Source: an uncultured bacterium
Lineage (GTDB): Bacteria; Fermentibacterota; Fermentibacteria; Fermentibacterales; JCC-6
Direction: 5' to 3'
DNA length: 64,000 bases
Assembly (NCBI GenBank): GCA_965372215.1
Contig: CBDVBK010000006.1
Location: 1,647 to 65,646 of the forward strand
Positions within the stretch are counted from its first letter, which is position 1; every line of letters begins with the position of its first letter. Below the pieces are notes generated by a model. That model did no database searches, was not told where the DNA came from, and saw only the letters and a program-made list of their open reading frames with translations. Shown here piece after piece: positions 1 to 24,889 of the stretch. Position numbers and translations under genes: made by a program.

Positions 1-1
1 G

Positions 2-592
2 ATCAATCAATTCACAGTCTACTCCCAGGAAAGAGGTGAAGATAGGGATACTGCTCCTGTTACCAGAGAAGAGGTCAGGAATTTCTGGATGGCCGGGGGA
101 GGATGTAACCTGCTGCTTGTTATGAGCAGATGCAGTGAGAGCAATGATATTTCTCAAATCACTGATCTGTCTGTTGAAGTGTCTTCAGAGCTTTCAGGGC
201 AGGTTGGTAACAATTATTCAGCTGATAACCTTACCGACGGAGATCCCGAAACCGCATGGGTCGAAGGTGCATACGGTTACGGTCACGGTGAAGTAATAAC
301 CGTTTCAACCAACGAAAAGTATATCGTTGAAGGTTTTACTGTAATAAACGGCTACTGCAAGCCTGGTGATGCATGGCTGGAGAACGCAAGGATCAGAAAG
401 TTCTTTATCTGTCTGAACGATACTCCCATGATGGTGGCCGAACTTGAAGACACAATGGACACGCAGGTTATAAGGTTTCCCGAGAATCTGTTCCTTGATG
501 TGGATGATAGTCTTACATTTGAAATACTTGAGATATATCCCGGATCCACCTATCAGGATGCCGCGATTTCCGAACTCTCACTAATCATATGA
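2..592 (+). CDS. Discoidin / NADase-type glycan-binding domain protein, probably the C-terminal part (5' end likely outside the window)
   Basis: ORF 89..592. The same frame has no stop back to nt 2, so the ATG at 89 may be internal. The motif NLTDGDPETAWVEG...GHGE...GFTVINGY resembles carbohydrate-binding F5/8-C-like modules. Assigned from motif memory only. Confidence 0.5.
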   Translation: MNQFTVYSQERGEDRDTAPVTREEVRNFWMAGGGCNLLLVMSRCSESNDISQITDLSVEVSSELSGQVGNNYSADNLTDGDPETAWVEGAYGYGHGEVITVSTNEKYIVEGFTVINGYCKPGDAWLENARIRKFFICLNDTPMMVAELEDTMDTQVIRFPENLFLDVDDSLTFEILEIYPGSTYQDAAISELSLII

Positions 593-784
593 AACAATGA
601 ACGGCATTTTTTGACTTTGAAAATTCAGTATTCCATTGCTTGCCTGATCCCTCTTTGGAAGAGCCAACTGCTATCTGACAGTTAAGAATGGAAATTTCAC
701 CTTTAGCTTCTGGCTATGCTGGTTTTCCTTGTTGACGTGGGATTGTTTCGGGAAGCATGGTCAGTTTCAGACAGGAATCGGAGG

Positions 785-1768
785 TTATACTTGGGAAAAT
801 ATGCTGTTTCTGGAAAATTCCCGGAACGGTTTGAAATCAAGATTCCTATTGCTCATTAGGAGCGCAGATGAGTGCACACGGATAAGAAATCCTAACCTGT
901 GTCCGAGGATAATATCCCCTTCATCGGAGATATAACAGCATGAAAAGCCCTCCGGGAACTGAACGCCTGGAATGAAGGAAACAAATACATCGCTGAACAT
1001 CGAAGCGATCACAATGCTGTCGCCACTGCACCAGATGTCCTTCGGTCCTTCCAGAGAACTGTCTATCACATGAAATTCCCATTCACCATTGATGCAACCC
1101 GGATTTCTCCACCAGCCAGCACCTCCTTCGGCGCAGGCAATACCAGCCGCATCAATGAGGGAATCACCGTCCATGTCAACTGCAAAGCACTTCTTTACTC
1201 CGACCTGAATCGTTCCGATATAGTGAACATCGGGAAGAGAACCTCGATTTTCTATCCAGATCACACCGCTTTCAAAGCCTGATGCGAATAAGTCCATATC
1301 CCCATCTCCGTCTATGTCACAAGGATAAATAGATTTAACCCCCGGCATTTTCACAAGGGTCGAAACCGTACCGTCCTGCTTCACAAGAACAACGATTCCC
1401 GGATCAAACAGAGCCACGGCTAATTCCGGAGCGGAAGGAGTACTCCAGAATACCTCGCATATCCTGTCCGGGTTTCCCGGAAGCGGTATCATCCGATCGT
1501 TCATGACAACGGATTCACCTGCAAAGTCTGCCGCAACGAGTTCTCCGTTCCAAAGGCAGATATCACGGGGCTCCAGTATTTTGTAAGGCATAACGTCCAC
1601 TGAACAGCCGTCATCCACAACGCAGATCACGGATCGATCAATACATGCTACCGCGATCCCTCCGGTCAAGGGATGAACAGCAACCGGAATACCAGGCAGC
1701 GGAACCACCTGTACCGCAGAACCAAGAAGAATGAGAAAATTTAGAAGATCAAGAACGAGACGGATCAT
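785..1768 (-). CDS. Secreted FG-GAP/VCBS repeat protein
   Basis: N-terminal hydrophobic signal-like segment (MIRLVLDLLNFLILLGSAVQV). Ca-binding-like repeats DIDGDGDMDLF and VDMDGDSLIDAAG are typical of FG-GAP/VCBS beta-propellers. The ATG overlaps the upstream stop (ATGA at 1765-1768). Confidence 0.7.
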   Translation of the reverse strand: MIRLVLDLLNFLILLGSAVQVVPLPGIPVAVHPLTGGIAVACIDRSVICVVDDGCSVDVMPYKILEPRDICLWNGELVAADFAGESVVMNDRMIPLPGNPDRICEVFWSTPSAPELAVALFDPGIVVLVKQDGTVSTLVKMPGVKSIYPCDIDGDGDMDLFASGFESGVIWIENRGSLPDVHYIGTIQVGVKKCFAVDMDGDSLIDAAGIACAEGGAGWWRNPGCINGEWEFHVIDSSLEGPKDIWCSGDSIVIASMFSDVFVSFIPGVQFPEGFSCCYISDEGDIILGHRLGFLIRVHSSALLMSNRNLDFKPFREFSRNSIFSQV

Positions 1769-2292
1769 GCGGGAAGCTCCCAGGGATGATCCGCATCTTT
1801 CAGCAGATATCCTTCAGGTATCTTAACCGGTGTGAATCCGCAGTCCTGCCAGAATTTTCCCATTTTCAGGTGCCCAAGAACCACAGCATTTGAGATCATT
1901 TCTCCCCATGAAGCCGGAACGACTGCGATCAGCGGTTCCATATTCGGAGCAAAGGCCACCGAGGGAAGATGTGGTCTTTGAATGAAGCACTTGATAATTC
2001 TGTCTACCTGATGCGGTTTCACAAGGGGTATATCACATGGAAGAAACATCACGCAATGATCGTGTAGAGCATGCAGAGCAGCTTCGATCCCTCCCATTGG
2101 TCCATTTCCGGAATGGATGTCCGCAATTCCTCCGGGACCGGAAGTGAAAACATCGATGCAGCTGGAAGAACTTAGAATCTTCAACGCGTTCTGCTCCATG
2201 GACAGACCGCTGGAAAGTATCACTGCCCGTTTGTCTCTTCCCATCCTGCCTGATTTCCCGCCTGCAAGCACCACTCCGTATACTTCGGTCAT
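1765..2292 (-). CDS. MobA-like nucleotidyltransferase (NTP_transf_3; possible molybdenum cofactor guanylyltransferase)
   Basis: N-terminal VVLAGGKSGRMGRDK signature of the MobA/MocA family. 175 aa. In the same operon as a molybdopterin oxidoreductase. 4-nt overlap on both sides. Confidence 0.7.
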   Translation of the reverse strand: MTEVYGVVLAGGKSGRMGRDKRAVILSSGLSMEQNALKILSSSSCIDVFTSGPGGIADIHSGNGPMGGIEAALHALHDHCVMFLPCDIPLVKPHQVDRIIKCFIQRPHLPSVAFAPNMEPLIAVVPASWGEMISNAVVLGHLKMGKFWQDCGFTPVKIPEGYLLKDADHPWELPA

Positions 2293-3050
2293 TTAAGCGG
2301 CCTTTCGAAATTCGATATCCTGAATCCGCTCCGAACCTTCCTGATCGTGTTTACGATCCAGAGAGTGAAATAACTCCAGAAAAGAACTGAGAAAAGGACT
2401 GGAAAAAAGGACAGTAAGGCAGCTATTGCAGCCATGTTCATCCAGGGGTGAAACATCGCGGAAAGCAGATATTCGATTCTGCCGGATCCTGGATTCCTGA
2501 CAAACAGCATTTTCAGAGATTTCTGTTCACCCTGACCTTCCCGGGTCCCGATGTGATTAAAGAAACTTTCAAGGAGGGTTTCTACCGCACAGAATCTCAC
2601 TACAAGCCAGAGGCCAGCCATAATCGTTCCGGCTATGACAGCTTTGAGATCACCGCTCAGGTTGTACATACCCCATCCCCAGGCTCCATAAAAAAGTCCC
2701 CTGGAACCTGTATCCCCAAGCTTATCTATGAACTCTCCGCCTGCTATGCTGCTGCTTCCCGTGAATCTGGCCACCTCTCCGTCGCATGCATCAAGGACGA
2801 AGGAAAGCTGAAGAAGAAAAGCTCCCCCGATGAAACAGGCGGGTTTGCCAGGAGCAAAGAGAGCAGCTCCAGCACAGGCAAGAACACCCTTAATCAGAGA
2901 GACGCAGTTCGCAGACAGCCCCATGCGTAGGAAAAGCGCTGTCAGATAAATGGAAAATCTGCGTATGATCAGTTTCCTGTAAAGACAGATATCCAGATCG
3001 TCCGGCTGGCAGATAGCTCTGAGCCTGGAAACATCAGGAATTTGCTTCAT
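2289..3050 (-). CDS. CDP-alcohol phosphatidyltransferase family membrane protein
   Basis: Motif DACDGEVAR-x9-G-x3-D-x3-D (D-x2-DG-x2-AR...G-x3-D-x3-D) and multiple hydrophobic helices. Confidence 0.85.
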   Translation of the reverse strand: MKQIPDVSRLRAICQPDDLDICLYRKLIIRRFSIYLTALFLRMGLSANCVSLIKGVLACAGAALFAPGKPACFIGGAFLLQLSFVLDACDGEVARFTGSSSIAGGEFIDKLGDTGSRGLFYGAWGWGMYNLSGDLKAVIAGTIMAGLWLVVRFCAVETLLESFFNHIGTREGQGEQKSLKMLFVRNPGSGRIEYLLSAMFHPWMNMAAIAALLSFFPVLFSVLFWSYFTLWIVNTIRKVRSGFRISNFERPLK

Positions 3051-3796
3051 TCTTTCTCCACTGTGGTCACAAGCACTGCACCGGGCAGCCGGTTCAGGGG
3101 CCGGAGTAGGATCGAAATCAGCAGGTAAACAAAGTGATACAGTCTCCTTGCCAGCTTATGCTCCTCAAAAAGATATGATACAAACCTGAACTGAAAAAGC
3201 GCTCCCATTCTCTGCTCCCTTACCCGTATACCCTTCATCGGCAGAAGGGGTTCAAGATTGGTGAAGGTTCGCTTGGGTCCGTAGCGCCAGCGTTCCTTCC
3301 TGATCAGATATTCCTTGACAGCCTCATGCAGGCGGCAGCCCTCCCAGGCAGTGATAACCACCATCCGGCCGCCCGGACATGTCACTCTTACCATCTCTCT
3401 GAGGATCATTTCAGCTCCGGTATCATCAAACAGATCAACGACACCTGTGCTGTAAACAAGATCGAAGCTTCCATTTTTGAAGGGAAGTTCACGAGCATCG
3501 GTAACAGCTGCTCCCGCTCCGGTCTCCTTTGTCAGTTCCGCTGCGGTCTGTGAGATATCAACGCCATACACCATTGGCGTAACCCGTGAAAGCCTGCCGG
3601 CTACAGGACCCGATCCGCATCCAACCTCAAGTATGCGTGTATGCTCCGCTATTACGCAGGTTCTCTTCAGTATTTCAATAACAAGTTTCTGAAGATCTCC
3701 ATACGCGGCGAGTGTCCTTCCTGCCCTGTGGATAAGCCCATTCTGTGAGGTTCTGTTCTTCCAGATATGTTCCCAGGTTTCAGGCTGCTGTGTCAT
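3047..3796 (-). CDS. Class I SAM-dependent methyltransferase
   Basis: Motif I ILEVGCGSGPVAG, followed by the VYGVDIS and LVYSTGV post-motifs. Confidence 0.8.
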   Translation of the reverse strand: MTQQPETWEHIWKNRTSQNGLIHRAGRTLAAYGDLQKLVIEILKRTCVIAEHTRILEVGCGSGPVAGRLSRVTPMVYGVDISQTAAELTKETGAGAAVTDARELPFKNGSFDLVYSTGVVDLFDDTGAEMILREMVRVTCPGGRMVVITAWEGCRLHEAVKEYLIRKERWRYGPKRTFTNLEPLLPMKGIRVREQRMGALFQFRFVSYLFEEHKLARRLYHFVYLLISILLRPLNRLPGAVLVTTVEKE

Positions 3797-4473
3797 GAAA
3801 ACTTCATCCCTGCCGCTGCAAGATCCTCAGGTGTGTCTACTTCTTCCCAGACGAACTGATCGGTGATCCATGCTTCTGTCCTGAGGGAGCCTGCGGCAAG
3901 ATTCACCGCATCATCAAAATTCGCTGAAGGATCATCTGACAAATGCTCTGAAAGCCTGCGTAAGATTCGGTGATTACGGACAAAGAACATACCCATGGAT
4001 TCTCCTGCGGATCTGGAAACAGGCAGAGATTTTGAGAGGCGAATAAGTCGGCTCCCGCGAACCTCCGCTTTCATTGCTTCTTCATCAGCTCTGTTTCGAG
4101 GGTCCACAGGTACCGCTATGTCTCCCCGGCTGCTGAATGTACCCCGGGCGAGACCGGCTTCCCAGACCAGATCCCCGTGAATGATCAGGAGAGAACTGTC
4201 GGAAGGAGGCATCGCGCAGAAAGAAGAGAAAGTACCGGGAGTATTCCACCGTGGATTGTAAACGGTTTTCAACCCCAGAGTCCTGCAGGATTCTGTTACA
4301 ACATCAGACCCGTAACCGGTAGCTACCGTGATTTCTTCAGATGCAATTCCAGCCCGGATCAGAGAATCCACATGACGGCTGAGAATGGTTTTTCCGCTCA
4401 CTTCGACCAGTATCTTTGGTATTCCCGCGCCCAGCCTGCTTCCAATCCCGGCTGCCAGTATCAGAACTTTCAT
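3793..4473 (-). CDS. Nucleotidyltransferase (sugar-/alcohol-phosphate cytidylyl- or nucleotidyl-transferase, LicC/IPCT-like)
   Basis: N-terminal MKVLILAAGIGSRLG...PK signature of NTP_transferase enzymes. C-terminal WEEVDTPEDL motif. Confidence 0.75.
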   Translation of the reverse strand: MKVLILAAGIGSRLGAGIPKILVEVSGKTILSRHVDSLIRAGIASEEITVATGYGSDVVTESCRTLGLKTVYNPRWNTPGTFSSFCAMPPSDSSLLIIHGDLVWEAGLARGTFSSRGDIAVPVDPRNRADEEAMKAEVRGSRLIRLSKSLPVSRSAGESMGMFFVRNHRILRRLSEHLSDDPSANFDDAVNLAAGSLRTEAWITDQFVWEEVDTPEDLAAAGMKFS

Positions 4474-5687
4474 GCTTTTATCAGGTTCCTTTCATACATC
4501 TTTTTCATTACACGGAAGCCAATCATTCCCGGCGCGGAGGGCTTTACAAATTCCTTTATCGGTATTCTACAGTTCAAAGAAATTTCAGCAGGTGAAAACG
4601 GAGTTGCGGGAAGCCTACGTATCAGACCAAATCTGAGCCTTCTCAACCCTGATCCGGCAAGTCTGCCCCACCGAACGCCGTTACGGAAGGCCCGTATCAT
4701 CTCGGATATCCCTCCAGCAGCCTCCCAGGGAAAGATATTCAGTGATACTTCAATCCCATTTGAAACAGCTGCGGTAATTGCCGATTTGAGCTGGTCTGGA
4801 TCGTAGTCCTTTCCGATTCTTCTCATCTGATCCGCCGTTCCTCCGTCGGGGGAAAAGGAAACAGCGATGCAGCCTGCACCGCGAATATGTGAACCGTATT
4901 CTCCGTCAAAATCCAGTGCGGAATGATATGCCTCCCAGGTAATACCGGAGTTGAGAGATCCGACCATAGAGGCCACTTCCATTCCCCTTGCCTTTCGATT
5001 GTTCAGAACGGGAGCGATCAGGAATAAATGGCGGGTGCCCTGAGCAGCCAGCTGTTGAATATCCTGTCTGACCAGTTCAAGGGATCTTTCCTGAACACTC
5101 CTGCCCGATATTGCGGAGTAGGAGCAATAGGTGCATCTGCGATCACATCCCCTGTTAACCTCCACACCCATCGCCAGATTTTTTTCAAAAGGAATGTAAG
5201 ATGATAAAGAAAGAAGATCGAACCGTGGAGAAACAAAATCCCCCTTTGCGCCATGATAGAGTCCGCACGCTCTGTTCCTGACCAGTTCATCCACAATGAG
5301 CTCACCATGCCCTGTAACCCCGCAGTGGATATGTTGAGAATGATCCATTATCTGCTCCGCGAAAATGCTGAAACCGGCTCCTCCTGCAAGTATGTGAGCA
5401 TCCGGACACAGTCTGGAGGTGAGTTCGATCTGCTCAAAACACCGGGGAATGTAACTGTATCGATCAAAACAGGAGGTGGTGTCGGCATTTCTCAGGCTGA
5501 ATCCAACAGCGTCAGGCTTATAATCCGCAATGACAGATCTGAGCCTCTCCATTGGTGACCGGCTTTGGTTAAGATCCTCTATCCGGATTTCGTGTGAAGC
5601 CAGTGAAGCGGCGATGGTGGCAAGCCCAAGGGGCAGTACCGGGTGCTGCTCTCTTCCGAGCCAGGCCTGAATCAGCAGAATTCTCAT
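4470..5687 (-). CDS. B12-binding-domain radical SAM protein
   Basis: N-terminal Rossmann-like MRILLIQAW...PLGLATIAASL...YKPDAVGFS segment typical of the cobalamin-binding domain. CX3CX2C motif CDRRCTYC at residues 181-188. Confidence 0.8.
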   Translation of the reverse strand: MRILLIQAWLGREQHPVLPLGLATIAASLASHEIRIEDLNQSRSPMERLRSVIADYKPDAVGFSLRNADTTSCFDRYSYIPRCFEQIELTSRLCPDAHILAGGAGFSIFAEQIMDHSQHIHCGVTGHGELIVDELVRNRACGLYHGAKGDFVSPRFDLLSLSSYIPFEKNLAMGVEVNRGCDRRCTYCSYSAISGRSVQERSLELVRQDIQQLAAQGTRHLFLIAPVLNNRKARGMEVASMVGSLNSGITWEAYHSALDFDGEYGSHIRGAGCIAVSFSPDGGTADQMRRIGKDYDPDQLKSAITAAVSNGIEVSLNIFPWEAAGGISEMIRAFRNGVRWGRLAGSGLRRLRFGLIRRLPATPFSPAEISLNCRIPIKEFVKPSAPGMIGFRVMKKMYERNLIKA

Positions 5688-6340
5688 TACTGCCTGATCG
5701 ATTCAAGAGCCATCATTCTCACTTTTCTATCCTTTTCCGGCCATCTGATGAGATGGGAAGCGGATGTATGGAATGGTCTCTCCGTCCAGACAGGATCCCC
5801 GCAGGAAAAACCGGCTGCAGTTATCTCCCTGAGCCAGTTGTCCGCTGTAAGATGGTGTTCATTTGATCCGTTTCTGAACCGGAGTCTTCTTGCTTCCTCC
5901 TCAAACCCGGTGATTCCCTTTTCGAAACACCAATCCTCCAGAATAAGGAAGATACCATTCGGTTTCAGAATTCTGTGTATCTCGTTCAGAGAGTGCTGTA
6001 GAGCCTTACTGTTCAGGTGGTGCAGGACAGCCATGGCCACTACGCAATCCGCCACACCGTTCCGGAGTGGAAGGGTCTCGGCCCTGCAGTTGAGGAAGAC
6101 GGCGGACGGTCTGACTTCTGAAGCCACAATTAGAAAATCAAGTGTAATGTCCGTGCAGATGTATTTCTCTATAAAAAGAGCTCTCCCCGCGATTGTTCCA
6201 GGCCCGCAGCCGATTTCAACAACAGTATCAGGTGATTTCTTCTTCAGTTCTTCCAGTATGTATCTATCGGCAGCCGATAACATTCTGTTCGCTGTGTACT
6301 CCCTGACCTGCCCGGGGCTCCAGCGTGAATTATCTGTCAT
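5687..6340 (-). CDS. Class I SAM-dependent methyltransferase
   Basis: Motif I VVEIGCGPGTIAG. Methyltransf_11-like LKPNGIFLILE motif. Confidence 0.8.
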   Translation of the reverse strand: MTDNSRWSPGQVREYTANRMLSAADRYILEELKKKSPDTVVEIGCGPGTIAGRALFIEKYICTDITLDFLIVASEVRPSAVFLNCRAETLPLRNGVADCVVAMAVLHHLNSKALQHSLNEIHRILKPNGIFLILEDWCFEKGITGFEEEARRLRFRNGSNEHHLTADNWLREITAAGFSCGDPVWTERPFHTSASHLIRWPEKDRKVRMMALESIRQ

Positions 6341-7485
6341 GCCCGGTGACCTATGGACCCGGTCAGTGGAGACCCCCCTCTGGTTACCAGCATACCGTAC
6401 CTCTTCTTCAGTTCCCTGCGGGAAACGGGACCCTTCGGGAAACTCCTCTCCACATCATCCAGAAAACGATCAAGTATGTGTCTGACCCACATGCAGTGGC
6501 GGGGATCCGGTTTTCCGGAGTCTCCGAGATGTATCCCGTCCCATGCACAGCCTCCACCGCAGATTCCCGCAGCGTGGCACTTTGAACAGTAGTCCATCGC
6601 TACAGGAATTCTGTTTGACCAGTCCTCCGTTGATCTCCCGCTTATGCAGTTTGATGTTCTGCCGTCGGGATGAAAAACGATTTTGCCCCCAAGGGCAGCG
6701 CAGTCTCTGTGCCTGTACACACCGCTGATGATCGGATCAATCCTCCGGGCGATCTGATCTACAAAGATCCCGTGTTTCAGAGCAGTGTCGAATACATTGC
6801 TGATTGCATCAGTGTATGCTTCAGCCGAGATTGGATCAAAGCTTCCAGGAGTCCAGTGAAGAATGTTGAACCCCATACTTACCGGCATGAATCTCTCATA
6901 CATCTGCTCCATCCCGATGGCAATGTTCTTCCAGTTGTGATGGCTGACAACGGTTGATATTCCGAATGATACCCCGGCTTTTCCAAGAAAATCCATCCCT
7001 TCCGCAGCTTCAGCCCAGGAACCGCATCGCTGTGAATTGTGAACACTTTCCATTCCGTCCAGCGAAACAACCGGAGATACTCCCATCAGCTTCAGCTCAG
7101 ACGCGATCTCCATTGTGATCAGTGTGGCATTTGTAAAAAGAACCTTCGGGGAATCAACTCTTTCAAGAATACGGAAAGCTACATCGGGAACAAGGAGAGG
7201 CTCTCCACCGGTTACCATCACCAGCCTGCCAGCGGGTGCTTCCTCAGCAGCTCTTATTACCCGGTCAGCGGTTTCAACGGTCATATCATCGGGAGAATCC
7301 CCGGAAAGTCTCACATTGCAGTAGCTGCACGAGAGATTACATCGTCTGGTTACAACAGCCTGAACTGCTTTAACCTCAGCGTGAGGAACGGGCGGAACAG
7401 CAGCATCGTAATCTTCCAGTGGTTCTCCCACGGATATCCGCAGTGTTACAGAATCAAACCAGGTATTGCCGTGCTTCCGGATCAA
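6337..7485 (-). CDS. Radical SAM / SPASM-domain protein (copy 3 in transcription order)
   Basis: CNLSCSYC (C49/C53/C56, nt 7318-7341). C-terminal SPASM-like CSKCHAAGICGGGC. Confidence 0.85.
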   Translation of the reverse strand: MIRKHGNTWFDSVTLRISVGEPLEDYDAAVPPVPHAEVKAVQAVVTRRCNLSCSYCNVRLSGDSPDDMTVETADRVIRAAEEAPAGRLVMVTGGEPLLVPDVAFRILERVDSPKVLFTNATLITMEIASELKLMGVSPVVSLDGMESVHNSQRCGSWAEAAEGMDFLGKAGVSFGISTVVSHHNWKNIAIGMEQMYERFMPVSMGFNILHWTPGSFDPISAEAYTDAISNVFDTALKHGIFVDQIARRIDPIISGVYRHRDCAALGGKIVFHPDGRTSNCISGRSTEDWSNRIPVAMDYCSKCHAAGICGGGCAWDGIHLGDSGKPDPRHCMWVRHILDRFLDDVERSFPKGPVSRRELKKRYGMLVTRGGSPLTGSIGHRA

Positions 7486-8765
7486 TTATCCACACTCTGC
7501 TCTTCGCCGATCATGGTTCCAACGGGCATGGGCATGGCGCCGGTATCAAAACCGCCTGCCGGAATGAGCGATTCCCTGCCATGCTCAACCGACCTTTCTA
7601 TCATCCATCTGAGGAATGCCCTCTCGAAGGAGCACCTTTCGGGTCTGATCCCGTTCAGTACTCCGGATGCATGGTATGCATCGTATCTGCATCCACCTCC
7701 GCAAAGGGCAAGGGCAGGACAGTTAATGCAGGCGGAAAAATTCACAGGAGACAGATCTCTGAACAGGGTGAGCAGATCCTTTACGTCATCCGTGTCTTCA
7801 AGGTTTACACCGTGATCACCGCAGACGGTCATGCAGTCACAGGTGCCTGCAATTCCCCCCGGAACCTGTACCAGTCTACCCCCGGCTGAAGCACAGTCCT
7901 TCAGCCTTGGAGACCGTCTGACGAAGGGTCTTACTCTTCTGGCGAGCTGTTCTATATACATGCCCCGGTCGATGGCTATTTCCATGCAGGAGACAACAGC
8001 CTCGAGAATCCCGGGATCGGTGACCTGAAGCGGATTTATCCTGCCGCCCTTTAAGGGATGCAGCCAGGGATTCAACCCCATGTCATCCGGCTGGAAGTAC
8101 TCCATGAGCCACTGAAAATCCTCTCTGACAGTTGCAATATTTCTTTCTGTGACTGTGACGGATATGCCCACTCTGCAGCCGGCATCCCTGAATACATGGA
8201 AAGCTTCTTCAGCTTTTTCAAACGAATTTCTTCCGTGAATCAGCGGTCTTGCACTGTTGTGTACAGCAGGAGGACCATCGATTGACACAATTATGAATGT
8301 GTTCTCTTCTGCTAGTTCCCTCGCCAGTAAGGGATCCACTGGAACCCCTCCCGTGGCGGCGGACAGGTTTATTCTGGCGCCGCTGCTTCTCACCCGGCGG
8401 ATTACATGAAGAACAAGATCTGGCCTCAGAAACGGCTCTCCCCCGTATAACAGAAGGTCAGCCGGCCCACTTCCCATCAGCTCAAGTCCCGCATCTATCT
8501 CCGCGGGGGTCATATCCCCCTGCTGAACATCCTGCAGAAAACAGTACCCGCAGCTTCTTACGCAACGTGTTGTCAGGAACATGCAGCCCATTATAATGCC
8601 GCTGTTCTCACCGGCTTTTCTCCGGTATAAAGCAAGCAGTTCCTGCTCACGTTCCGGAGAAGGGCATTCCTCAGGAGAATTGTAGAGTTCGAGAGTAAGG
8701 GAATGAAAGTAAACCTTTTCACCACTCACCTCGTAAGCGTGCAGAAACGATGATACGCAGCTCAT
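7482..8765 (-). CDS. Radical SAM / SPASM-domain protein (copy 2)
   Basis: CVRSCGYC (C68/C72/C75, nt 8541-8564). C-terminal CINCPALALCGGGC. Confidence 0.85.
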   Translation of the reverse strand: MSCVSSFLHAYEVSGEKVYFHSLTLELYNSPEECPSPEREQELLALYRRKAGENSGIIMGCMFLTTRCVRSCGYCFLQDVQQGDMTPAEIDAGLELMGSGPADLLLYGGEPFLRPDLVLHVIRRVRSSGARINLSAATGGVPVDPLLARELAEENTFIIVSIDGPPAVHNSARPLIHGRNSFEKAEEAFHVFRDAGCRVGISVTVTERNIATVREDFQWLMEYFQPDDMGLNPWLHPLKGGRINPLQVTDPGILEAVVSCMEIAIDRGMYIEQLARRVRPFVRRSPRLKDCASAGGRLVQVPGGIAGTCDCMTVCGDHGVNLEDTDDVKDLLTLFRDLSPVNFSACINCPALALCGGGCRYDAYHASGVLNGIRPERCSFERAFLRWMIERSVEHGRESLIPAGGFDTGAMPMPVGTMIGEEQSVDN

Positions 8766-9784
8766 TCCCCGAATTCCGCTATTATGGTACAGAGATACGA
8801 AGCGTGTATGTAGTCGTCTCCAGACAGCACGGGTTTCTGAGCAAGTTCCGGCACAGAATGTTCGTTCTTCATGAAGCAGTAGATGTCAGGTTCGGATTTC
8901 CCCGTATATAGCCGTCGTCCGGAACAGCCTCCGCGGCATACATCATACCAGTCGCAGCCATCACAGAACTCAGGTATGGTAAGTTCGCAGCCAGAGGGAA
9001 GATCCATCTCCCCGGAAAGGAAATTCTCCATGGTAACTGGACTGTGATCCCAGTACACGCAGGGCATGATCTCTCCGCCTGGTCTCAGCCGCAGGGAAGA
9101 CACACCGCAGGGACTGCCTTTCATGGAGATCTCCCTGGAACTGTTTCCCGCCGTCAGCGCCGCGTTTACCACCGGCTCGGAGCAAGCAACAGCCTCAGCT
9201 TCAATGAATAGGTTCTTTATGGCTTGCCAGAAGGAATCGTAATCAGGCTCATATTCTTTCCCTTTGATAGCCTTGTATACATTCACCCGGAGTGACACAC
9301 CAAGGTTCCTGCAGAGGGAGCACATTTCCTCCATCCGGGAGGCATTCTGCTTCATGAGGCACATAGCAACAGAAGCGGTAACACCAAGTGATCTGCACCG
9401 CTCAATTCCTCTGAGTACCATATCGTAGGCACCTTCAGCCCGCCAGCTGTCATGCAAATCTCTCTGTGGAAAGTCCAGAGAGAAATCCACATCGTGCAGT
9501 CTTTTAATCTCCTCATCCGACATGGCTTCAATACTGGGGCCAGCCGTGGTGAGAGCAACCGGAATATTCAATCTGAATAATTCATCAAGAATATTGTGAA
9601 AACCGGGATATAGACAGGATTCACCGGTACCTAGATTTATGGATTCCACACTGCACGAGGAAAGGAAACGGAACAGCATATCGCTGTCCATTTCCACAGG
9701 ATTCTGTCCTCCTCCTGAATAGCAGTGTCTGCACGAAAATGTGCAGGCTGAAGTAAGTCCGACACCTAACGCAATACTGCTCAT
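8762..9784 (-). CDS. Radical SAM / SPASM-domain protein (copy 1)
   Basis: CTFSCRHC (C14/C18/C21, nt 9722-9745). C-terminal CDGCDWYDVCRGGC. RBS-like AAGGGGA in the 11-nt gap upstream. Confidence 0.85.
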   Translation of the reverse strand: MSSIALGVGLTSACTFSCRHCYSGGGQNPVEMDSDMLFRFLSSCSVESINLGTGESCLYPGFHNILDELFRLNIPVALTTAGPSIEAMSDEEIKRLHDVDFSLDFPQRDLHDSWRAEGAYDMVLRGIERCRSLGVTASVAMCLMKQNASRMEEMCSLCRNLGVSLRVNVYKAIKGKEYEPDYDSFWQAIKNLFIEAEAVACSEPVVNAALTAGNSSREISMKGSPCGVSSLRLRPGGEIMPCVYWDHSPVTMENFLSGEMDLPSGCELTIPEFCDGCDWYDVCRGGCSGRRLYTGKSEPDIYCFMKNEHSVPELAQKPVLSGDDYIHASYLCTIIAEFGE

Positions 9785-9795
9785 CTATTCCCCTT

Positions 9796-10551
9796 CTAGA
9801 AAAATGTCAGGTTGCGCCTATGATAGATTATCAGCGCACTAAGGGCAATATTCGCCTGATGGAGATAGCCCCTCCAGTCAGCAGGTATATCAAAGAGATC
9901 GATGGTCAAAGACCCTCCGTAACCCGCTTCAGCCAGGCCACGGAACAGATATCCCCAGTTTATATCCCCCTGACCGGGGAGCAGGTGTCTGTGTTCCGAA
10001 CGGTTCATTCCTTCCACATGCACATGAAATATCCTGTTTCCCAGGGAACTGATATTTTCAACCGTACACCGCTCCTGAATATGGAAGTGACCGGCGTCCA
10101 GATTGATACCTGCAAGGGGTCCCAGGGAAGCTATATACATGTTGAAGTCGTCAATGCCGTCAAGCACAGTATCAGGTTCCGTTTCCCAGGCCGGTTTAAT
10201 ATTCAGCCTGCAGCACAGGTCATAAAGATCAGCCGCTTCCATGAGGAAACTTTTCCTGTCCCGAACGGGAGACCCGAGTACCGCCACGGAAACGGAGCAT
10301 TCCGCCGCCATCCTTATAGCCCGCTTTCCGTATTTCAGCCTTGTGACTGGATCGTCATTTTTCCCATGATAGCTTACTGATGAGATATCCAATCCCATTT
10401 TCCTGGCCAGTTCGAGAGTATCCGGTGAAGCTTCAGGGTGCTCAAGACAGAACTCAACAGTCTGATATCCAGCCTGGACGATACCTTCAAGAGCTTTTCT
10501 CAGAGGCAGATGACTTAGACCGGACGTGCGGAATCCGATCTTCTCAAACAT
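9796..10551 (-). CDS. Sugar phosphate isomerase/epimerase (xylose-isomerase-like TIM barrel)
   Basis: AP_endonuc_2-type pattern: VEFCLEH..., HVHVEG...HRHLLPGQGDINW...GYGGSLTIDLF. Confidence 0.75.
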   Translation of the reverse strand: MFEKIGFRTSGLSHLPLRKALEGIVQAGYQTVEFCLEHPEASPDTLELARKMGLDISSVSYHGKNDDPVTRLKYGKRAIRMAAECSVSVAVLGSPVRDRKSFLMEAADLYDLCCRLNIKPAWETEPDTVLDGIDDFNMYIASLGPLAGINLDAGHFHIQERCTVENISSLGNRIFHVHVEGMNRSEHRHLLPGQGDINWGYLFRGLAEAGYGGSLTIDLFDIPADWRGYLHQANIALSALIIYHRRNLTFF

Positions 10552-12889
10552 TTTTTATCCGAACCAGACACTTTGTGTGACAAACAGCCTCGCATGGAGG
10601 TTCGCTGCATCTGAGGCAGGCGGACGTGAATCCCGGAGTCCACTCTCCGTCCTTCAAACGAACCACCAGACCGTGAATACCGGTATGAGCCACACAGGCC
10701 ACTGCGCAGGCCCGGCAGCCTGTGCACCATATGGTTCTTACATCCTCTGTAATTCCTGATTCAGCTGCCCTGCTTCCCGGCACATTCCCGTATTCTTCCG
10801 GAGCGTCAACAGGTCCGGTGATCCGGCAGGGCAAACAGCGGAACGGATATCCGAGCCCCCCTCTTCCGTGCATTCCGGAAGTAAGCAGGTCATTCACATT
10901 CAAGCCAGGACCGTTCCAGCCATGGGCAGCAGATATTACACCTTTTTTTATCAGTGGTGAAGAGATGACAACTCTTTTACAGCTTCCCCATGGTGATTCA
11001 AGAAGCACCCAGTCGCCGGAGTTGATCTCATGCGGCATATCATCAGGGTGTATCTCAACCGCGGGTAACGGTTCAAGTTCACGCAGGTGCTGAATATTCC
11101 GGTGTTCTCCATGGAAATAGAGGGGGCTTCTGGCTCCTGAGGTTAGCTTCAGAGGATATTCCCTTCCCGGATTCGATGTGGGGGGAGGAACATACCAGGG
11201 AGCAGGAATCAATCCGGACATTTTCATCAGTCCGGGCTGCAGTTCTATTTTCCCGGTGGGTGTATTAAACCTGCCCCTTGAGAGATGCTTGCTGTATTCA
11301 GTTCCAGGCATGAGCCACCCCTTCCGGCACAGCTCGCTCCAGCTATATCCGGAGGGTTGAAGGATATGATCATACCACCCGGTCACATCAGACCAGGGAA
11401 AGTGCTCCTCGGCAACGATTCTGCCAAAGGAAAGGACAACATCCATGTCCGAACGACTTTCACCAATGGGATCTATCACTCTGTCGAAAGCCGCAAGCTG
11501 ATACCACCAGTTCCGAATGCCCGAACGTTCCAGACAGGTACATACGGGAAGAAAGATATCCGCCAGTTCATTTGCAGCAGGACTCATGAACAGATCGACC
11601 ATTACTGAAAGTCCTGTTCTGCTCAGAAGATGTCCCACCCGCTTCGGCTCAGCAAAACCGTTTGCTGTCAGCCCCGTTCCCTGATACCATGCGCATTCTA
11701 TACTGCGACCTTTCTCAACCTCATTCAGCAGAACATCCGCATGTGCATAAGGAACTCCGCAGCCGATCATGGGATATTCCGAAATACCGGTTTTCGTTTT
11801 CTGAAGATCTTCCGCCAGATCTCTGTCCACACCCCTTCTGCTTATCCCGAAGGGGTCAGTCACAATGACATTCCCGCCGGGTACATCAAGATTTCCGGAG
11901 AGGACAACGAGCGAGGTCAGAGCGTGAGCAGTTCCAAGAGCTGACGGAGACATATCCACTGAGACACCCCAGTGGAGTGCAGCTGGTTCTGATCGACCGT
12001 ACAGCAGAGCGGCACTGACAATGTCCTCAACAGGAACTCCGCATTCAGCAGACGCCCTTTCGGGTGAGAAGGATTTCACCTGCTCCAGCACCTCATCCGC
12101 TCCGTTCACCCATTTCTCTGTGAATTCGGTCTTCACCATATCCTCTTTGAAAAGCACATGAAGAAAGGCCATGGCAAGAGCAGCATCCGTTCCAGGATCT
12201 ATCGCAAGATGCACATCTGCTCTTCTTGCCATCCAGGTCTCTCTGGGATCCACAACTACCATCCTTGAGCCCAGTTTCAGACAGTGAACGATCCACTGTC
12301 CCAGAAAGCCGTCGGGATTGGAGTCTACAGGGTTTGAGCCCCAGACCAGAATGCACTCCGGAAGACGCCACCGGGGATCATTGTATCTCTGTGGAAAATA
12401 CTGTGAGCAGTCGGCAACCATGAAACCGCCGAAGACTGCGTGTGTAACACTCATCCTGGGCATCAGGCAGGCGCTGCCGCTGCCGGGTCCCAGAGCGTAG
12501 TATTCGGAACTTCCAAAACCATAGGCAAGGCGGGAGAGCCAGGGACCGATATCCCTCCCGGTACCCTTGCAGAAGATTACGCTGGAAGGACCGTGCTTAT
12601 CCCTCGCTTCAAGAAATGCATCCCCGGCCATTCCCAGGGCTTCTTCCCAGGATACTTTTCTCCAGCCTGCTCTGTTTTTTATCAAAGGGTACAGCTGCCT
12701 GTCAGGATGATAAACCGTTTCCGGGAGAGCAGCCCCTCTGGGACACAGAGACCCGCCGTTAAAAGGGTTCGACGGATCCCCGCGGATTTCCACGACTCTT
12801 CCATCGTCGATCAGCGCTATTATCCCGCAGCCGTTGTGACAGCCGGGAGGTGTTGTGCAAATGGTTCGTACAGTCCGTAAAATGCTCAT
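10544..12889 (-). CDS. Molybdopterin (bis-MGD) oxidoreductase, DMSO-reductase superfamily, with fused C-terminal 2x[4Fe-4S] ferredoxin-like domain
   Basis: N-terminal Fe-S motif C11-x5-C17-x3-C21-x27-C49 (..SLCPRG..). Long MopB core. Molydop_binding-like segment (VEIHPDD...GDWVLLESPWG). Last 60 aa carry CxxCxxCxxxC and CxxCx4CxxxC. No twin-arginine signal. Confidence 0.85.
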   Translation of the reverse strand: MSILRTVRTICTTPPGCHNGCGIIALIDDGRVVEIRGDPSNPFNGGSLCPRGAALPETVYHPDRQLYPLIKNRAGWRKVSWEEALGMAGDAFLEARDKHGPSSVIFCKGTGRDIGPWLSRLAYGFGSSEYYALGPGSGSACLMPRMSVTHAVFGGFMVADCSQYFPQRYNDPRWRLPECILVWGSNPVDSNPDGFLGQWIVHCLKLGSRMVVVDPRETWMARRADVHLAIDPGTDAALAMAFLHVLFKEDMVKTEFTEKWVNGADEVLEQVKSFSPERASAECGVPVEDIVSAALLYGRSEPAALHWGVSVDMSPSALGTAHALTSLVVLSGNLDVPGGNVIVTDPFGISRRGVDRDLAEDLQKTKTGISEYPMIGCGVPYAHADVLLNEVEKGRSIECAWYQGTGLTANGFAEPKRVGHLLSRTGLSVMVDLFMSPAANELADIFLPVCTCLERSGIRNWWYQLAAFDRVIDPIGESRSDMDVVLSFGRIVAEEHFPWSDVTGWYDHILQPSGYSWSELCRKGWLMPGTEYSKHLSRGRFNTPTGKIELQPGLMKMSGLIPAPWYVPPPTSNPGREYPLKLTSGARSPLYFHGEHRNIQHLRELEPLPAVEIHPDDMPHEINSGDWVLLESPWGSCKRVVISSPLIKKGVISAAHGWNGPGLNVNDLLTSGMHGRGGLGYPFRCLPCRITGPVDAPEEYGNVPGSRAAESGITEDVRTIWCTGCRACAVACVAHTGIHGLVVRLKDGEWTPGFTSACLRCSEPPCEAVCHTKCLVRIKNV

Positions 12890-13153
12890 ACTCCCTCAGT
12901 ATTATCAGATGGAATATGCCTGATAGGAGCTTCAATGAATAGTACTGCATTCCCCTTTGGATGCAATGCGGTGTTTCTACTGTACCGGGATCGATACTCT
13001 GGCATTACCACCATCCCTGTTGGAGAAGCATGCTGTCAGGTAGAATCAGATCAGAATCATCATATGGACATTGAAGATTAAATCTTATATAACAATATGT
13101 ATCATATTATTACATCTTACTGGATTTTAGGAATGCTGTTGTTCACTCTCAAT

Positions 13154-15610
13154 ATGAAACGGAACCAAAATATGAAAACACTAACTTTTGTTCTTCTGAT
13201 TCTCTGCGGAACCATGTTCGCGGAATGGATCGATTTCGGAATTGAAGGCATTGATCATGCCACACTCTCCGTTGTGGAATCCACTCCATCCGGTATGATT
13301 ATTGATATCACTATTCCAGGAATCAGCATAACTCCTTCTCCGGAGAATGGCATTAATTTTTCAAACCTCAGTATTCCGGGAACCACAATTACAGCTCTGG
13401 AACCTGGCTACCCTATGTTTCCGAAAGTCTCATTCCTCGCTGCGCTTCCATCCAATCCATCTATTACGTGCACTGTTGAATCGATGAGAACAATCAGCCT
13501 GGGGCAGATCATACCTTTTCCCATGCAGCCGATACTGCTTGAGAATGCTACGGAATCAGCCGCTTTCACGTACATTCCGTCCGCATATGAAACCGGAACC
13601 TACCCTTCGGAAATAGTACAGTATAATGTTGATGGCATCCTTCGCGGCATTACAATGGGTCGATTTGTGATAAACCCCGTAACCTGGGACGCTGAAACAG
13701 ATTTGCTCACCGTATACGCTGAACTCCGCGTCAGGATTGAATTCGGAGGCTCAGTAACCGTTGACAAAAGACTCTACTCACGATTCTTTGAACCGACTTT
13801 CAACCAGTCTCTGATAAACGCTGATATTCTCGGTGAACCGGACCGTACAGTGTATATGCATTCAAGCGGTCCTGTCTATGCCCATTCGCGCGAAGAGGCA
13901 ATGGATTTAGATGGCGCTGATCTTCTTATTATAGCGGGTGATGATTTCGTAGAAACGATGATTGAGGATTTCGTTACAGCGAAGTTCGAACAGGGTTATC
14001 TTCCGGCAGTCGTCTCGGCAGGAACCTGGACCTATGCCGAAATCGCTGAATACATAAAGATCGCATACGATACATGGGAACTTCCACCCTCGTTTATTCT
14101 TACAATCGGAGACGGGCCGGAACTCACTGCATACTACGCTCCTACAGGTATCTGGAGTGATAATCGCTACGCCTGTGTAGATGGTCCCGATTACATGGCG
14201 GATATTTTCCATGGCAGGTTTGCCACGCCGACGGATTACTATCCGAATGTACAGGAGAAGCAGCTTAAATGGCAGTTCGATCCGGTAATGAATCTGGATT
14301 TCTGGAACAACATATTATGTGCAGGAGCACTTGAAACCGGTGGTGATAATACCGCGAACAGATGGTTCCTTTTTACATGCGAAGCTGTTCATGACACCTA
14401 CGAAGACCTTTTCGGGAAAACAGCTCACCGCATGTATCTGAAAGACACTTCCGCTTCTCCGCCATATTATTACCATCCTCACCTTCCGTCAGCAGGCCAG
14501 GAAATACCCTCTGAAATAACTTACACCGGATCAACGTCGGGTGTTATAGATGTATTTAACAATGGCGTATTTATGGTACAGCACAGGTCACATGGCTCTG
14601 TAACAGGATGGAGTACTCCTTCATTCCAGATATCGGATTTTTCAAGCCTTACAAACGGAGACAATACTCCAACAGTCTTCAGTTTCAACTGCAGTACAGG
14701 AAAATTCTACAATGAAACATGTTTTGCCGAGTGTCTGGTAAGAATTGAAGATGGGGCGGTCATGGTTGTCGCTGCCTGCGGATCATCTTACAGCTACTTC
14801 AACGATTATATGATCTACGGCTGTCACGCAAGTTTCAATGATGATTTCATTGAACCTCCCTACACTTATACGAATCCTTCCGGAGGCTACCTCGCGGGAC
14901 AGATGATGACGGATGGAAAACTGGAGATGCAGGTTTCCGCCCCGTTCAATCCTTACGGCAGCTGGGAGTTTTATGCAGAAGTTGAATGGGATCTGTTCCT
15001 TGTCTTTGGTGATCCCACAATGGACATGAGAACAAAGGTTCCGGTTCCACTCAGCGTTGATGCGCCGCTGACTCTACCTGAAGGTTCTACCGAAACAGTA
15101 TTCATCGTCTCAATGCCTGATGAGGGAGCAACCGAAGGAGCGCTTGTCTGTCTTCGCAAAGAGGATGAAAGCCTTTATGCAACCGGTCTTACCAACTCAT
15201 ACGGACAGGTGACACTCACCTTCGATCCGATTGTCACAGCGACACAACTGGACTGGATGGTTACCGCTCATAACGCTCTGCCGGAAACTGGCATAATCAA
15301 CGGTGTCGGAGTAGCAGAGCGGGATGGAGCTGTCGAGATCAGCATCGGCACACCGTTCCCAAATCCGAGTACCGGTATGATTCTCTTCCCTGTTTCACTT
15401 GATATTACAGAGAATTTAGAGTTGACCATATACGACCTGTCCGGCCGCGCGGTTGAGACCGTTCACTCCGGCGAACTGGCAGCCGGTACTCATGAAATCG
15501 TCTGGAATGGATGTTTCGGTGATAATTTTGCTCCTGCGGGTATCTATCTTGCAAGATATGTTACGGGAAATGGAAATACCGGAACTCTCAAGATTGTTCT
15601 TATGAAGTAG
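13154..15610 (+). CDS. Gingipain-like (peptidase C25 family) secreted protein with T9SS-type C-terminal sorting domain
   Basis: ORF 13097..15610. Signal-peptide-like MKRNQNMKTLTFVLLILCGTMFA starts at ATG 13154 (alternative ATG at 13172). The central region resembles the C25 caspase-like fold (family call moderate). The C-terminal ~80 aa (LELTIYDLSGRAVETV...GTHEIVWNG...AGIYLARY) match the FlgD-Ig/T9SS CTD pattern. Confidence 0.7.
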   Translation: MKRNQNMKTLTFVLLILCGTMFAEWIDFGIEGIDHATLSVVESTPSGMIIDITIPGISITPSPENGINFSNLSIPGTTITALEPGYPMFPKVSFLAALPSNPSITCTVESMRTISLGQIIPFPMQPILLENATESAAFTYIPSAYETGTYPSEIVQYNVDGILRGITMGRFVINPVTWDAETDLLTVYAELRVRIEFGGSVTVDKRLYSRFFEPTFNQSLINADILGEPDRTVYMHSSGPVYAHSREEAMDLDGADLLIIAGDDFVETMIEDFVTAKFEQGYLPAVVSAGTWTYAEIAEYIKIAYDTWELPPSFILTIGDGPELTAYYAPTGIWSDNRYACVDGPDYMADIFHGRFATPTDYYPNVQEKQLKWQFDPVMNLDFWNNILCAGALETGGDNTANRWFLFTCEAVHDTYEDLFGKTAHRMYLKDTSASPPYYYHPHLPSAGQEIPSEITYTGSTSGVIDVFNNGVFMVQHRSHGSVTGWSTPSFQISDFSSLTNGDNTPTVFSFNCSTGKFYNETCFAECLVRIEDGAVMVVAACGSSYSYFNDYMIYGCHASFNDDFIEPPYTYTNPSGGYLAGQMMTDGKLEMQVSAPFNPYGSWEFYAEVEWDLFLVFGDPTMDMRTKVPVPLSVDAPLTLPEGSTETVFIVSMPDEGATEGALVCLRKEDESLYATGLTNSYGQVTLTFDPIVTATQLDWMVTAHNALPETGIINGVGVAERDGAVEISIGTPFPNPSTGMILFPVSLDITENLELTIYDLSGRAVETVHSGELAAGTHEIVWNGCFGDNFAPAGIYLARYVTGNGNTGTLKIVLMK

Positions 15611-15632
15611 TTTACAGAATAGCTGGTTCATG

Positions 15633-15668
15633 ATCCCGCTCCGGACTCTCCGGGGCGGGATATTTTTT
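15633..15668 (+). terminator. Rho-independent terminator after the C25-like gene
   Basis: Hairpin ATCCCGCTCCGG-ACTCT-CCGGGGCGGGAT (15633-15661) followed by a T6 run (15663-15668). Confidence 0.75.
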
Positions 15669-15681
15669 GTATACTAAACAC

Positions 15682-18033: not shown

Positions 18034-18034
18034 A

Positions 18035-18059
18035 GATGGCGATGCAATGCATCGCCATC
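18035..18059. terminator. Bidirectional hairpin between convergent genes
   Basis: Perfect palindrome GATGGCGATGCA-A-TGCATCGCCATC, located between the helicase stop (18033) and the lipoprotein stop (18079). Confidence 0.6.
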
Positions 18060-18078
18060 TCCGGAATATTCTCAAAGC

Positions 18079-18405: not shown

Positions 18406-18539
18406 ATTAGCTCCTTTCAGTTTTCAAAATGATTTTCTATTCTAGAATTAATTATGTTGAAGACCCCCCGCTTCATACACAAGGGTAACCAATAAGACAC
18501 GTTCAAGTTAATGTCAAGAAGAAAACCAGGCTCGCCGAT

Positions 18540-19286: not shown

Positions 19287-19420
19287 AGCATCCTCCCCGT
19301 GCTTTTGTGATACAGCATGCATCACAATAAGAAACAATACTATCTTCATTATTGAATTGCCAGTGGTTCAATTGCTATGTAAAAGAATGCTGTACATGAA
19401 TACAGCACTGTTGTATCTGC

Positions 19421-24840: not shown

Positions 24841-24889
24841 AAAAAGAACCGGTCACTGTATTCAACAATCAGACAATGCTGGTGAGAAC

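Follow-up and report, generated by a model that had tools for sequence, protein, structure and literature searches.

On what do three adjacent radical S-adenosylmethionine (rSAM) enzymes with SPASM domains act when no precursor peptide is encoded near them? The question is raised by a 64,000-nt stretch of DNA from an uncultured Fermentibacterota bacterium (JCC-6; GCA_965372215.1, contig CBDVBK010000006.1, positions 1,647-65,646), which we call the window. There, the three genes lie inside an operon of 12 minus-strand genes that runs from 12889 down to 785 and of which ten recur as a cassette in other genomes. An initial annotation of the window offered two options, namely that the trio acts sequentially on a small molecule in a BtrN-like way or that it matures one of the co-encoded proteins. 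The answer toward which we lean, with somewhat more belief than doubt, is that the cassette sequentially remodels a sugar-, polyol- or cyclitol-phosphate-like intermediate, which would subsequently be activated with cytidine triphosphate (CTP) and transferred. The three genes are as follows.

8762..9784, minus strand: rSAM1, a 340-aa radical SAM/SPASM enzyme (motifs, Pfam, AlphaFold2 (AF2) model, Foldseek)
7482..8765, minus strand: rSAM2, a 427-aa radical SAM/SPASM enzyme (motifs, Pfam, AF2 model, Foldseek, profile comparison)
6337..7485, minus strand: rSAM3, a 382-aa radical SAM/SPASM enzyme with a TTG start (BLASTP, hhalign, alignment)

The coordinates, lengths and N-terminal CX3CX2C motifs that the initial annotation gave for these open reading frames (ORFs) proved correct: the motif reads CTFSCRHC at residue 14 of rSAM1, CVRSCGYC at residue 68 of rSAM2 and CNLSCSYC at residue 49 of rSAM3. 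Toward the C-terminus, each protein carries a C-x2-C-x5-C-x3-C motif, at residue 274 of rSAM1 (CDGCDWYDVCRGGC), residue 346 of rSAM2 (CINCPALALCGGGC) and residue 300 of rSAM3 (CSKCHAAGICGGGC). The GGG-C element that had been ascribed to all three is present in rSAM2 and rSAM3, but rSAM1 reads RGG. With three further invariant Cys residues per protein (C226/C242/C303 in rSAM1, C291/C309/C378 in rSAM2 and C262/C280/C331 in rSAM3), the seven-Cys SPASM set of two auxiliary clusters is complete in all three and invariant across 19-23 orthologues per family. The Pfam Radical_SAM model PF04055 matched the three proteins with E values of 1e-14 to 4e-17, hence the rSAM assignment is not due to chance. 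The Pfam SPASM model itself matched some homologues only, and the folds do match SPASM enzymes.

Pairwise comparison, which the initial annotation had proposed as a check of paralogy, gave a divided result. Judged by sequence, rSAM2 and rSAM3 are paralogues, with 29% identity and an E value of 5e-36 by BLASTP and, by hhalign, a probability of 100% and an E value of 2e-69 over 368 columns that include the N-terminal region. By the same kind of comparison rSAM1 is a separate family; it matched rSAM3 with an E value of 5e-6, or 2e-17 when profiles were compared. It has no N-terminal extension, NxGTGE replaces GGEP, and a C-terminal VHxxYLCT is invariant in the family. For rSAM2, it is the tail PMPxGTxxGE that is conserved and for rSAM3 a C-terminal S-x-G-H.

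To place the trio against known families, we used NCBIfam models, and none of the ten cassette proteins reached a cut-off. The highest fraction among the trio, about a third, was obtained with the MftC model and rSAM1 (77 bits against a cut-off of 265). The AhbC model gave 64 bits against 650, AhbD 60 against 500, NirJ about 52 against 515, anSME (TIGR03942) 39-42 against 349 and QhpD 43-44 against 453. The initial annotation had left room for all three proteins falling within a clade of known function such as AhbC/AhbD; with scores between a tenth and a third of the cut-offs, they do not. We therefore rejected membership in anSME (39-42 bits against 349, and an operon without a sulfatase gene), in AhbC/AhbD/NirJ (at most 64 bits against 500-650, and no sirohaem or haem genes nearby) and in PqqE/MftC/QhpD (below the cut-offs, and no PqqA/D, MftA/B or QhpC partner genes). 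A BtrN-type twitch dehydrogenase, which has one auxiliary cluster and about 250 aa, was likewise rejected because all three proteins carry full SPASM domains. A NifB/MarB-like role for rSAM1 was rejected too, as NifB structures rank 46-49 in Foldseek, and the NifB model (TIGR01290) was not among the best 25 of 34 NCBIfam matches.

Structure comparisons gave closer relatives. When the rSAM2 profile was searched against the PDB, TigE (8VPO), a maturase that forms cyclopropylglycine in a ribosomal peptide, matched over its full length with an E value of 6e-32, followed by CteB, anSME and ChlB. The AF2 model of rSAM2 (predicted local distance difference test, pLDDT, 91.5) found the same set in Foldseek, with CteB, anSME, TigE and ChlB the best at template-modelling (TM) scores of 0.6-0.7. 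For the rSAM1 model (pLDDT 89), BlsE came first, followed by SkfB, CteB, SuiB, anSME and PqqE with similar scores. BtrN matched the rSAM2 profile with an E value of 3e-5 and lay outside the Foldseek top 50 for both models, and PqqE was a weak PDB match only. Taken together, the trio consists of full SPASM proteins of new families, in which rSAM2 and rSAM3 derive from the peptide-maturase branch.

Descent from that branch raises the question of whether a leader-binding (RRE) domain persists. In the AF2 model, the rSAM2 N-terminus comprises three strands and one helix, which is a winged-helix RRE minus two helices. The rSAM1 CX3CX2C motif at residue 14 leaves no room for an RRE. The orthologues from other phyla (clades E and F) have N-termini of about 130 residues that align with the TigE RRE, and Pfam returned no PqqD match for these long N-termini. 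Scans with Pfam and NCBIfam found no separate PqqD-like gene in the cassette. In TigE and SkfB, the C-terminal tail occupies the protein's own RRE cleft (PMC10878394). Given this precedent and the conserved tails of rSAM2 and rSAM3, a vestigial RRE that the tail itself may occupy is a reasonable supposition.

The trio does not travel alone. We gathered loci by a scan of species-representative genomes and by contig look-ups and found the cassette nearly gene for gene, and in nearly the same order, in more than 30 loci at 30-90% identity. Its carriers, uncultured anaerobes of several phyla, are Fermentibacterota, Calditrichota, LCP-89, Tariuqbacter and Zixibacteria, in addition to unclassified metagenome-assembled genomes (MAGs); the Zixibacteria protein is a member of the rSAM1 family. 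Identity of rSAM2 is 44-90% within Fermentibacterota (Aegiribacteria, Sabulitectum, Fermentibacteraceae) and 37-41% in Calditrichota, LCP-89, Tariuqbacter, a Black Sea MAG and others. The ten-gene set comprises rSAM1-3 and the first seven of the following genes; the last two genes of the operon complete the list.

10544..12889, minus strand: cytoplasmic Mo/W enzyme of the bis-MGD type (MGD, molybdopterin guanine dinucleotide), probably of the acetylene-hydratase/catechol-dehydroxylase group (library and PDB profile matches)
9796..10551, minus strand: xylose-isomerase-like TIM barrel (fold of sugar/ketose isomerases, epimerases or dehydratases)
5687..6340, minus strand: MT1, a class I SAM methyltransferase within the most conserved six-gene core
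4470..5687, minus strand: B12-binding radical SAM enzyme (B12-rSAM), class B, a probable C-methylase (144 bits with TIGR04072, whose cut-off is 360)
3793..4473, minus strand: nucleotidyl (cytidylyl) transferase resembling CTP:inositol-1-phosphate cytidylyltransferase (IPCT-like; NF041135, E value 3e-17, below cut-off)
3047..3796, minus strand: MT2, a class I SAM methyltransferase with a hydrophobic C-terminus
2289..3050, minus strand: membrane CDP-alcohol phosphotransferase in which the D-x2-D-G-x2-A-R-x9-G-x3-D-x3-D motif is intact
1765..2292, minus strand: MobA-like nucleotidyltransferase, in Fermentibacterota loci only
785..1768, minus strand: FG-GAP repeat protein, the operon's final gene, with matches in Fermentibacterota loci only

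Most junctions in the operon are overlaps of 4 or 8 nt, with a single 1-nt overlap at 5687 and a single 11-nt spacer. The earlier statement that every junction flanking the trio is an overlap holds for three of them, each of 4 nt, but not for the fourth, where the 11-nt spacer, containing an AAGGGGA ribosome-binding site, separates the TIM-barrel gene from rSAM1. A rearranged cassette was found in one Deltaproteobacteria MAG and three others, and the core that survives every rearrangement, clade F included, consists of the Mo enzyme, the TIM barrel, rSAM1-3 and MT1. Clade E loci have the B12-rSAM gene upstream of the Mo enzyme. Fusions of the Mo enzyme with the TIM barrel, about 1018 aa long, occur in locus L001 (5896-8955) and in P0263, which are two separate protein clusters. 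The MobA-like and FG-GAP genes are confined to Fermentibacterota, and the MobA-like protein probably makes the MGD cofactor for the Mo enzyme. Our literature search found no publication on this gene combination. Its parts are known superfamilies, and SPASM enzymes with non-peptide substrates already have precedents.

If the trio acted on a peptide, a precursor gene could be expected to recur with it. To look for one, we took 37 loci (cluster plus 1.5-kb flanks), collected the 1445 ORFs of 15-100 aa that lie outside known genes and clustered them by BLASTP, at an E value of 1e-3 over all loci and of 0.05 for clades D-F. In these 37 loci, no credible short ORF was common to more than one clade; families within clades A-C were not screened. 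Those cross-clade matches that did appear all lay downstream of the cassette and were either weak pairs of two members or mere readings of downstream genes in an alternative frame. Non-coding DNA is nearly absent inside the cassette, and neither a protease, an exporter nor a PqqD/MftB-like gene was found there. Upstream of the operon lies one further candidate region.

12890..13096, no strand: divergent intergenic region 5' of the operon, 207 nt

It contains no credible ORF, and no Rfam element was found in it or in the operon. One sigma-70-like site lies just past this region (13152-13124) and does not score above chance. The initial annotation's observation that no precursor peptide is encoded nearby was thus borne out when orthologous loci were searched with relaxed thresholds. 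In one Fermentibacteraceae clade, 500-630 nt without a convincing gene separate the B12-rSAM and nucleotidyltransferase genes (L017:14207-14726 and its equivalent in L018-L021), and the L017 gap has no Rfam match. At the same position, L007 carries a 1.7-kb insert (7312-9008).

We turn to the genes around the trio, of which the Mo/W enzyme heads the operon. Its best PDB match was acetylene hydratase (2e7z, E value 3e-49), followed by thiosulfate/polysulfide reductase (2vpw) and formate dehydrogenases. It has no twin-arginine translocation (Tat) signal. In the alignment of Mo enzymes, the active-site motif A-C141-x2-P-R is invariant and a C-terminal GYPFR-x3-C is conserved. The C-x2-P-R lies at the expected metal-ligand position, which we take to correspond to Cys141 of acetylene hydratase. 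Gordonibacter (L051) and a genome of 5.4 Mb (L052) encode relatives with 38-42% identity, in units made up of the Mo enzyme, a ferredoxin of 111-113 aa, a major facilitator superfamily (MFS) transporter and a LuxR-type regulator. Both keep the equivalents of C141, P144 and C688 and have no rSAM trio beside them; of the N-terminal cluster motif (C-x5-C-x3-C), they do not retain the first Cys. This context of ferredoxin and MFS transporter is that of the small soluble Gordonibacter catechol dehydroxylases (PMC7028382). In addition, a homologue of the Mo dehydroxylases is encoded in the CC-1065 and yatakemycin clusters, where it is thought to dehydroxylate a late intermediate (PMC7028382). In some Fermentibacterota only, the Mo enzyme ends in a fused 2x[4Fe-4S]-like tail (residues ~720-781; 10544-10726), and since related Mo enzymes are followed by a separate ferredoxin gene, this tail represents a fused small ferredoxin subunit. 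The most economical role for the Mo enzyme in the cassette is reductive dehydroxylation or hydration.

At the other end of the cassette, two proteins suggest how a product could be activated and transferred. The best PDB matches of the nucleotidyltransferase were the CTP:inositol-1-phosphate cytidylyltransferase of A. fulgidus (2XME, E value 2e-10; 4MND) and the phosphonate cytidylyltransferase PntC (6PD1), and that of the membrane CDP-alcohol protein was the DIPPS domain of AF2299. Because these are the best solved relatives and yet the scores fall far below the cut-offs (62.7 bits against 580 for the IPCT-like protein and NF041135), we describe the pair as IPCT/DIPPS-like and not as a member of that system.

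The company that rSAM1 and rSAM2 keep outside the cassette also bears on their substrates. In a mini-cassette, an uncharacterised protein of ~260-310 aa, an rSAM2-like protein (474 aa; 26-30% identical to rSAM2), a small methyltransferase and an rSAM1-like protein (~360 aa) are encoded together. The mini-cassette loci are as follows.

L045:6244-10088: mini-cassette
L047:5816-13540: mini-cassette, preceded by a GT61 glycosyltransferase and a small pyrophosphatase-like gene and followed by rmlACBD-like dTDP-sugar genes
L048:6075-10076: mini-cassette

Members of the rSAM1 family with a VHxDYLCTWIG end are found on conjugative plasmids, where they adjoin genes for inorganic diphosphatase, for an enzyme of the AMP-binding or GNAT type and for an efflux pump (MFS or MATE).

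L050:5332-12699: rSAM1-family locus on Enterococcus plasmid pM190262
L049:6893-13570: rSAM1-family locus on a Phaeobacter inhibens plasmid

This plasmid context resembles a small-molecule biosynthetic or defence module. Lastly, rSAM1-family genes with 36-40% identity and all family motifs precede genes for NifH-like, NifD/E-like and NifK-like proteins and a UbiE-type methyltransferase, in clusters often headed by a TrpB-like pyridoxal phosphate (PLP) enzyme that comes before the rSAM1-family gene.

L040:10001-15795: nitrogenase-like locus of Dendrosporobacter quercicolus
L042:6798-13432: nitrogenase-like locus
L043: nitrogenase-like locus
L044:8001-13535: nitrogenase-like locus

Besides D. quercicolus, metagenomic contigs are the source of these loci. 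This nitrogenase-like system is uncharacterised, and the gene at its 'B' position is not NifB-like. No called short ORF stands beside the rSAM genes in the mini-cassette, plasmid or nitrogenase-like contexts, all of which look like small-molecule chemistry.

What the analysis demonstrates is the identity of the genes, their motifs, the paralogy, the synteny between phyla, the lack of a conserved precursor ORF and relationships at the level of folds. From these observations, we infer a substrate class, a reaction sequence, a chemistry for every rSAM enzyme and an acceptor as follows. The TIM barrel and rSAM1-3 would act one after the other on a sugar-, polyol- or cyclitol-phosphate-like intermediate. 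Each rSAM enzyme would take a hydrogen atom by means of a 5'-deoxyadenosyl radical, with its two auxiliary clusters accepting an electron, and the outcome may be dehydrogenation, carbon-carbon bond formation or epimerisation. The Mo/W enzyme could remove a hydroxyl group or add water, while MT1, MT2 and the B12-rSAM enzyme would methylate the product. The IPCT-like enzyme would join the phospho-alcohol to CMP, and the membrane CDP-alcohol transferase would hand the product on to an alcohol as acceptor, which would be a lipid or another polyol phosphate. The product is most likely a methylated, phosphate-linked small molecule made without oxygen.

As for the two options with which we began, action on a small molecule is favoured by the small-molecule and head-group gene set, by the lack of a precursor in more than 30 loci and by the peptide-free relatives, and maturation of a co-encoded protein is weakened. 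The term "BtrN-like" is, strictly, wrong, since all three are full two-cluster SPASM proteins and not one-cluster twitch enzymes. Several points weigh against the sequential remodelling of a phosphorylated intermediate. By profile and fold, rSAM2 and rSAM3 are nearest to the peptide or protein modifiers TigE, CteB, anSME and ChlB, in a comparison that is biased either way by how few small-molecule SPASM enzymes the PDB contains, and their N-termini align with the TigE RRE. The cassette has no kinase, no sugar-phosphate synthase (e.g. MIPS) and no obvious acceptor-forming gene. Furthermore, the identity of the substrate is something we purely infer, as no family cut-off is reached at any step.

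The rival that survives best holds that the product is an organic or metallo-organic cofactor, soluble or bound to an enzyme, for the Mo/W enzyme or another redox enzyme, and not a head group; the nucleoside triphosphate (NTP)-transferase and transferase pair would then build a phosphodiester tail of the kind known from the assembly of F420 or cobamide. The position of the rSAM1 family at the 'B' site of nitrogenase-like clusters, which echoes IsrB (PMC11423573, PMC13474568), speaks for such a cofactor, but rSAM1 itself is not NifB-like, with NifB at ranks 46-49. An integral membrane CDP-alcohol transferase points instead to a membrane product, although DIPPS provides the precedent of a membrane enzyme that makes a soluble one. 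On balance, we think a cofactor unlikely.

Rather unlikely, too, is that the trio matures a ribosomally synthesised and post-translationally modified peptide (RiPP) or peptide-derived cofactor, as PqqE and MftC do, from a precursor encoded elsewhere in the genome, with the rest of the cassette decorating it. Such elaboration has a precedent in mycofactocin, a peptide-derived cofactor that is later glycosylated and methylated. The nearest relatives of rSAM2 and rSAM3 by profile and fold are RiPP maturases, and the ~130-aa N-termini of clade E/F orthologues align with the TigE RRE; in Fermentibacterota, however, that domain is truncated, and the conserved tails of rSAM2 and rSAM3 fit a self-occupied vestigial domain. 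A peptide origin would also have to be reconciled with the 37 loci without a cross-clade short ORF and with a cassette that contains no protease, PqqD/MftB-like gene or exporter.

Could the trio instead act like anSME or QhpD and mature a co-encoded protein post-translationally, the Mo/W enzyme being the most obvious candidate? The Mo enzyme is present in every case, the rSAM genes come after it and the TIM-barrel gene, its A-C141-x2-P-R is invariant and its GYPFR-x3-C conserved, and anSME-like folds were found in the comparisons above. Nevertheless, C141, P144 and C688 are conserved in the 38-42% identical relatives that work without the trio, which argues against the trio as an obligatory maturase. 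With three different rSAM enzymes, methyltransferases, a CDP-alcohol pair and a TIM barrel, the cassette contains more than a maturase system would require, and rSAM1/rSAM2-like pairs also occur without any metalloenzyme. We regard protein maturation as improbable. Finally, it is very hard to credit that the cassette is catabolic and uses radical and Mo chemistry to degrade a polyol or aromatic anaerobically. In function, the nearest relatives of the Mo enzyme are catabolic or respiratory (catechol dehydroxylases, acetylene hydratase; PMC7028382), but the cassette has neither a transporter nor a regulator, and its nucleotidyl activation, its CDP-alcohol transferase and its three methylating enzymes speak for anabolism.

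Returning to sequential remodelling followed by CTP activation, a more specific version can be formulated, which we offer tentatively and with more doubt than conviction. In this version, rSAM2 and rSAM3, as descendants of peptide maturases that had an RRE, and the widespread non-peptide rSAM1 family would have been recruited for the oxygen-free remodelling of a sugar- or cyclitol-phosphate, yielding, together with a dehydroxylase-type Mo/W enzyme, a hitherto unseen C-/O-methylated phosphodiester head group or cofactor in Fermentibacterota and further anaerobes of sediments, and the rSAM1 family would be made up of partners of low-potential metalloenzymes (Mo/W-bis-pyranopterin guanine dinucleotide (Mo/W-bisPGD) and nitrogenase-like enzymes).

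SPASM rSAM enzymes are usually annotated as peptide maturases and serve as RiPP markers in genome-mining tools. A cassette that is conserved in multiple phyla and has three SPASM rSAM enzymes but no peptide would contribute a clear example outside RiPPs. If true, our proposal would also imply that abundant, uncultured bacteria of sediments and digesters possess a new oxygen-independent pathway and, probably, a new cofactor or membrane head group. Two orphan enzyme families are tied to testable partners, i.e., the dehydroxylase-type Mo enzyme and the nitrogenase-like systems, and the cassette, with ten genes in ~10 kb, is a defined target for heterologous expression.

The surroundings of the operon differ from it in composition. 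Within positions 1-20000 of the window, G+C content is 50-53% in the operon and 44-48% in both flanks, and this higher value, along with the patchy distribution of the cassette, suggests lateral spread or acquisition. Sequencing runs that contain the stretch are marine-sediment DNA runs only. Diverging from the operon is a gene for a gingipain-like C25 peptidase with a FlgD-Ig/type IX secretion system (T9SS) tail (13097-15610), after which a single polypeptide (15667-18033) combines a PD-(D/E)XK nuclease domain with an XPD/DinG-type helicase. Three more radical-SAM genes are present in the window (23710-27253, 31950-32981 and 39930-41633), one of which overlaps the gene for an 820-aa protein with a spermidine-synthase domain, and pyruvate:ferredoxin oxidoreductase is encoded at 34532-38071.

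How does the cassette compare with known systems? Isethionate reductase depends on a radical-SAM partner, IsrB, which is essential and has an undefined role (PMC11423573, PMC13474568). IsrB and the rSAM1 family may be related, the likeness being one of gene context beside nitrogenase-like genes only; unlike the IsrB setting, the window has no nitrogenase-like genes, and rSAM1 is not NifB/MarB-like. With Gordonibacter-type catechol dehydroxylases and acetylene hydratase, the Mo enzyme shares the lack of a Tat signal, a length of ~750 aa and the C-x2-P-R motif, the 38-42% identity being to a Gordonibacter enzyme assigned by its Dodh/Cldh-type gene context (small ferredoxin plus MFS). In contrast to that type, the enzyme described here is part of a biosynthetic cassette, is sometimes fused to the TIM barrel and has its ferredoxin fused as a tail or absent. 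The cytidylyltransferase and membrane transferase, with its intact Asp motif, are shared with the IPCT/DIPPS system of A. fulgidus (2XME, 4MND, 4O6M), but in the cassette their genes are separate, with a methyltransferase gene between them, and no inositol-phosphate synthase is encoded.

For the trio itself, the common ground with TigE, CteB and anSME (8VPO, 5WGG, 4K36) is the radical-SAM core and the seven-Cys, two-cluster SPASM domain, at 15-19% identity to maturases of this type. What sets the trio apart from them is that it has neither a precursor peptide nor a sulfatase target and that its RRE is cut to three strands and one helix. AhbC/AhbD/NirJ, BtrN and BlsE are precedents for SPASM or twitch rSAM enzymes that act on non-peptide substrates. 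The gene context differs from that of BtrN and BlsE in the lack of aminoglycoside or nucleoside genes, and BtrN has one auxiliary cluster; BlsE, however, an enzyme with a nucleoside-sugar substrate, is the structure that rSAM1 matches best.

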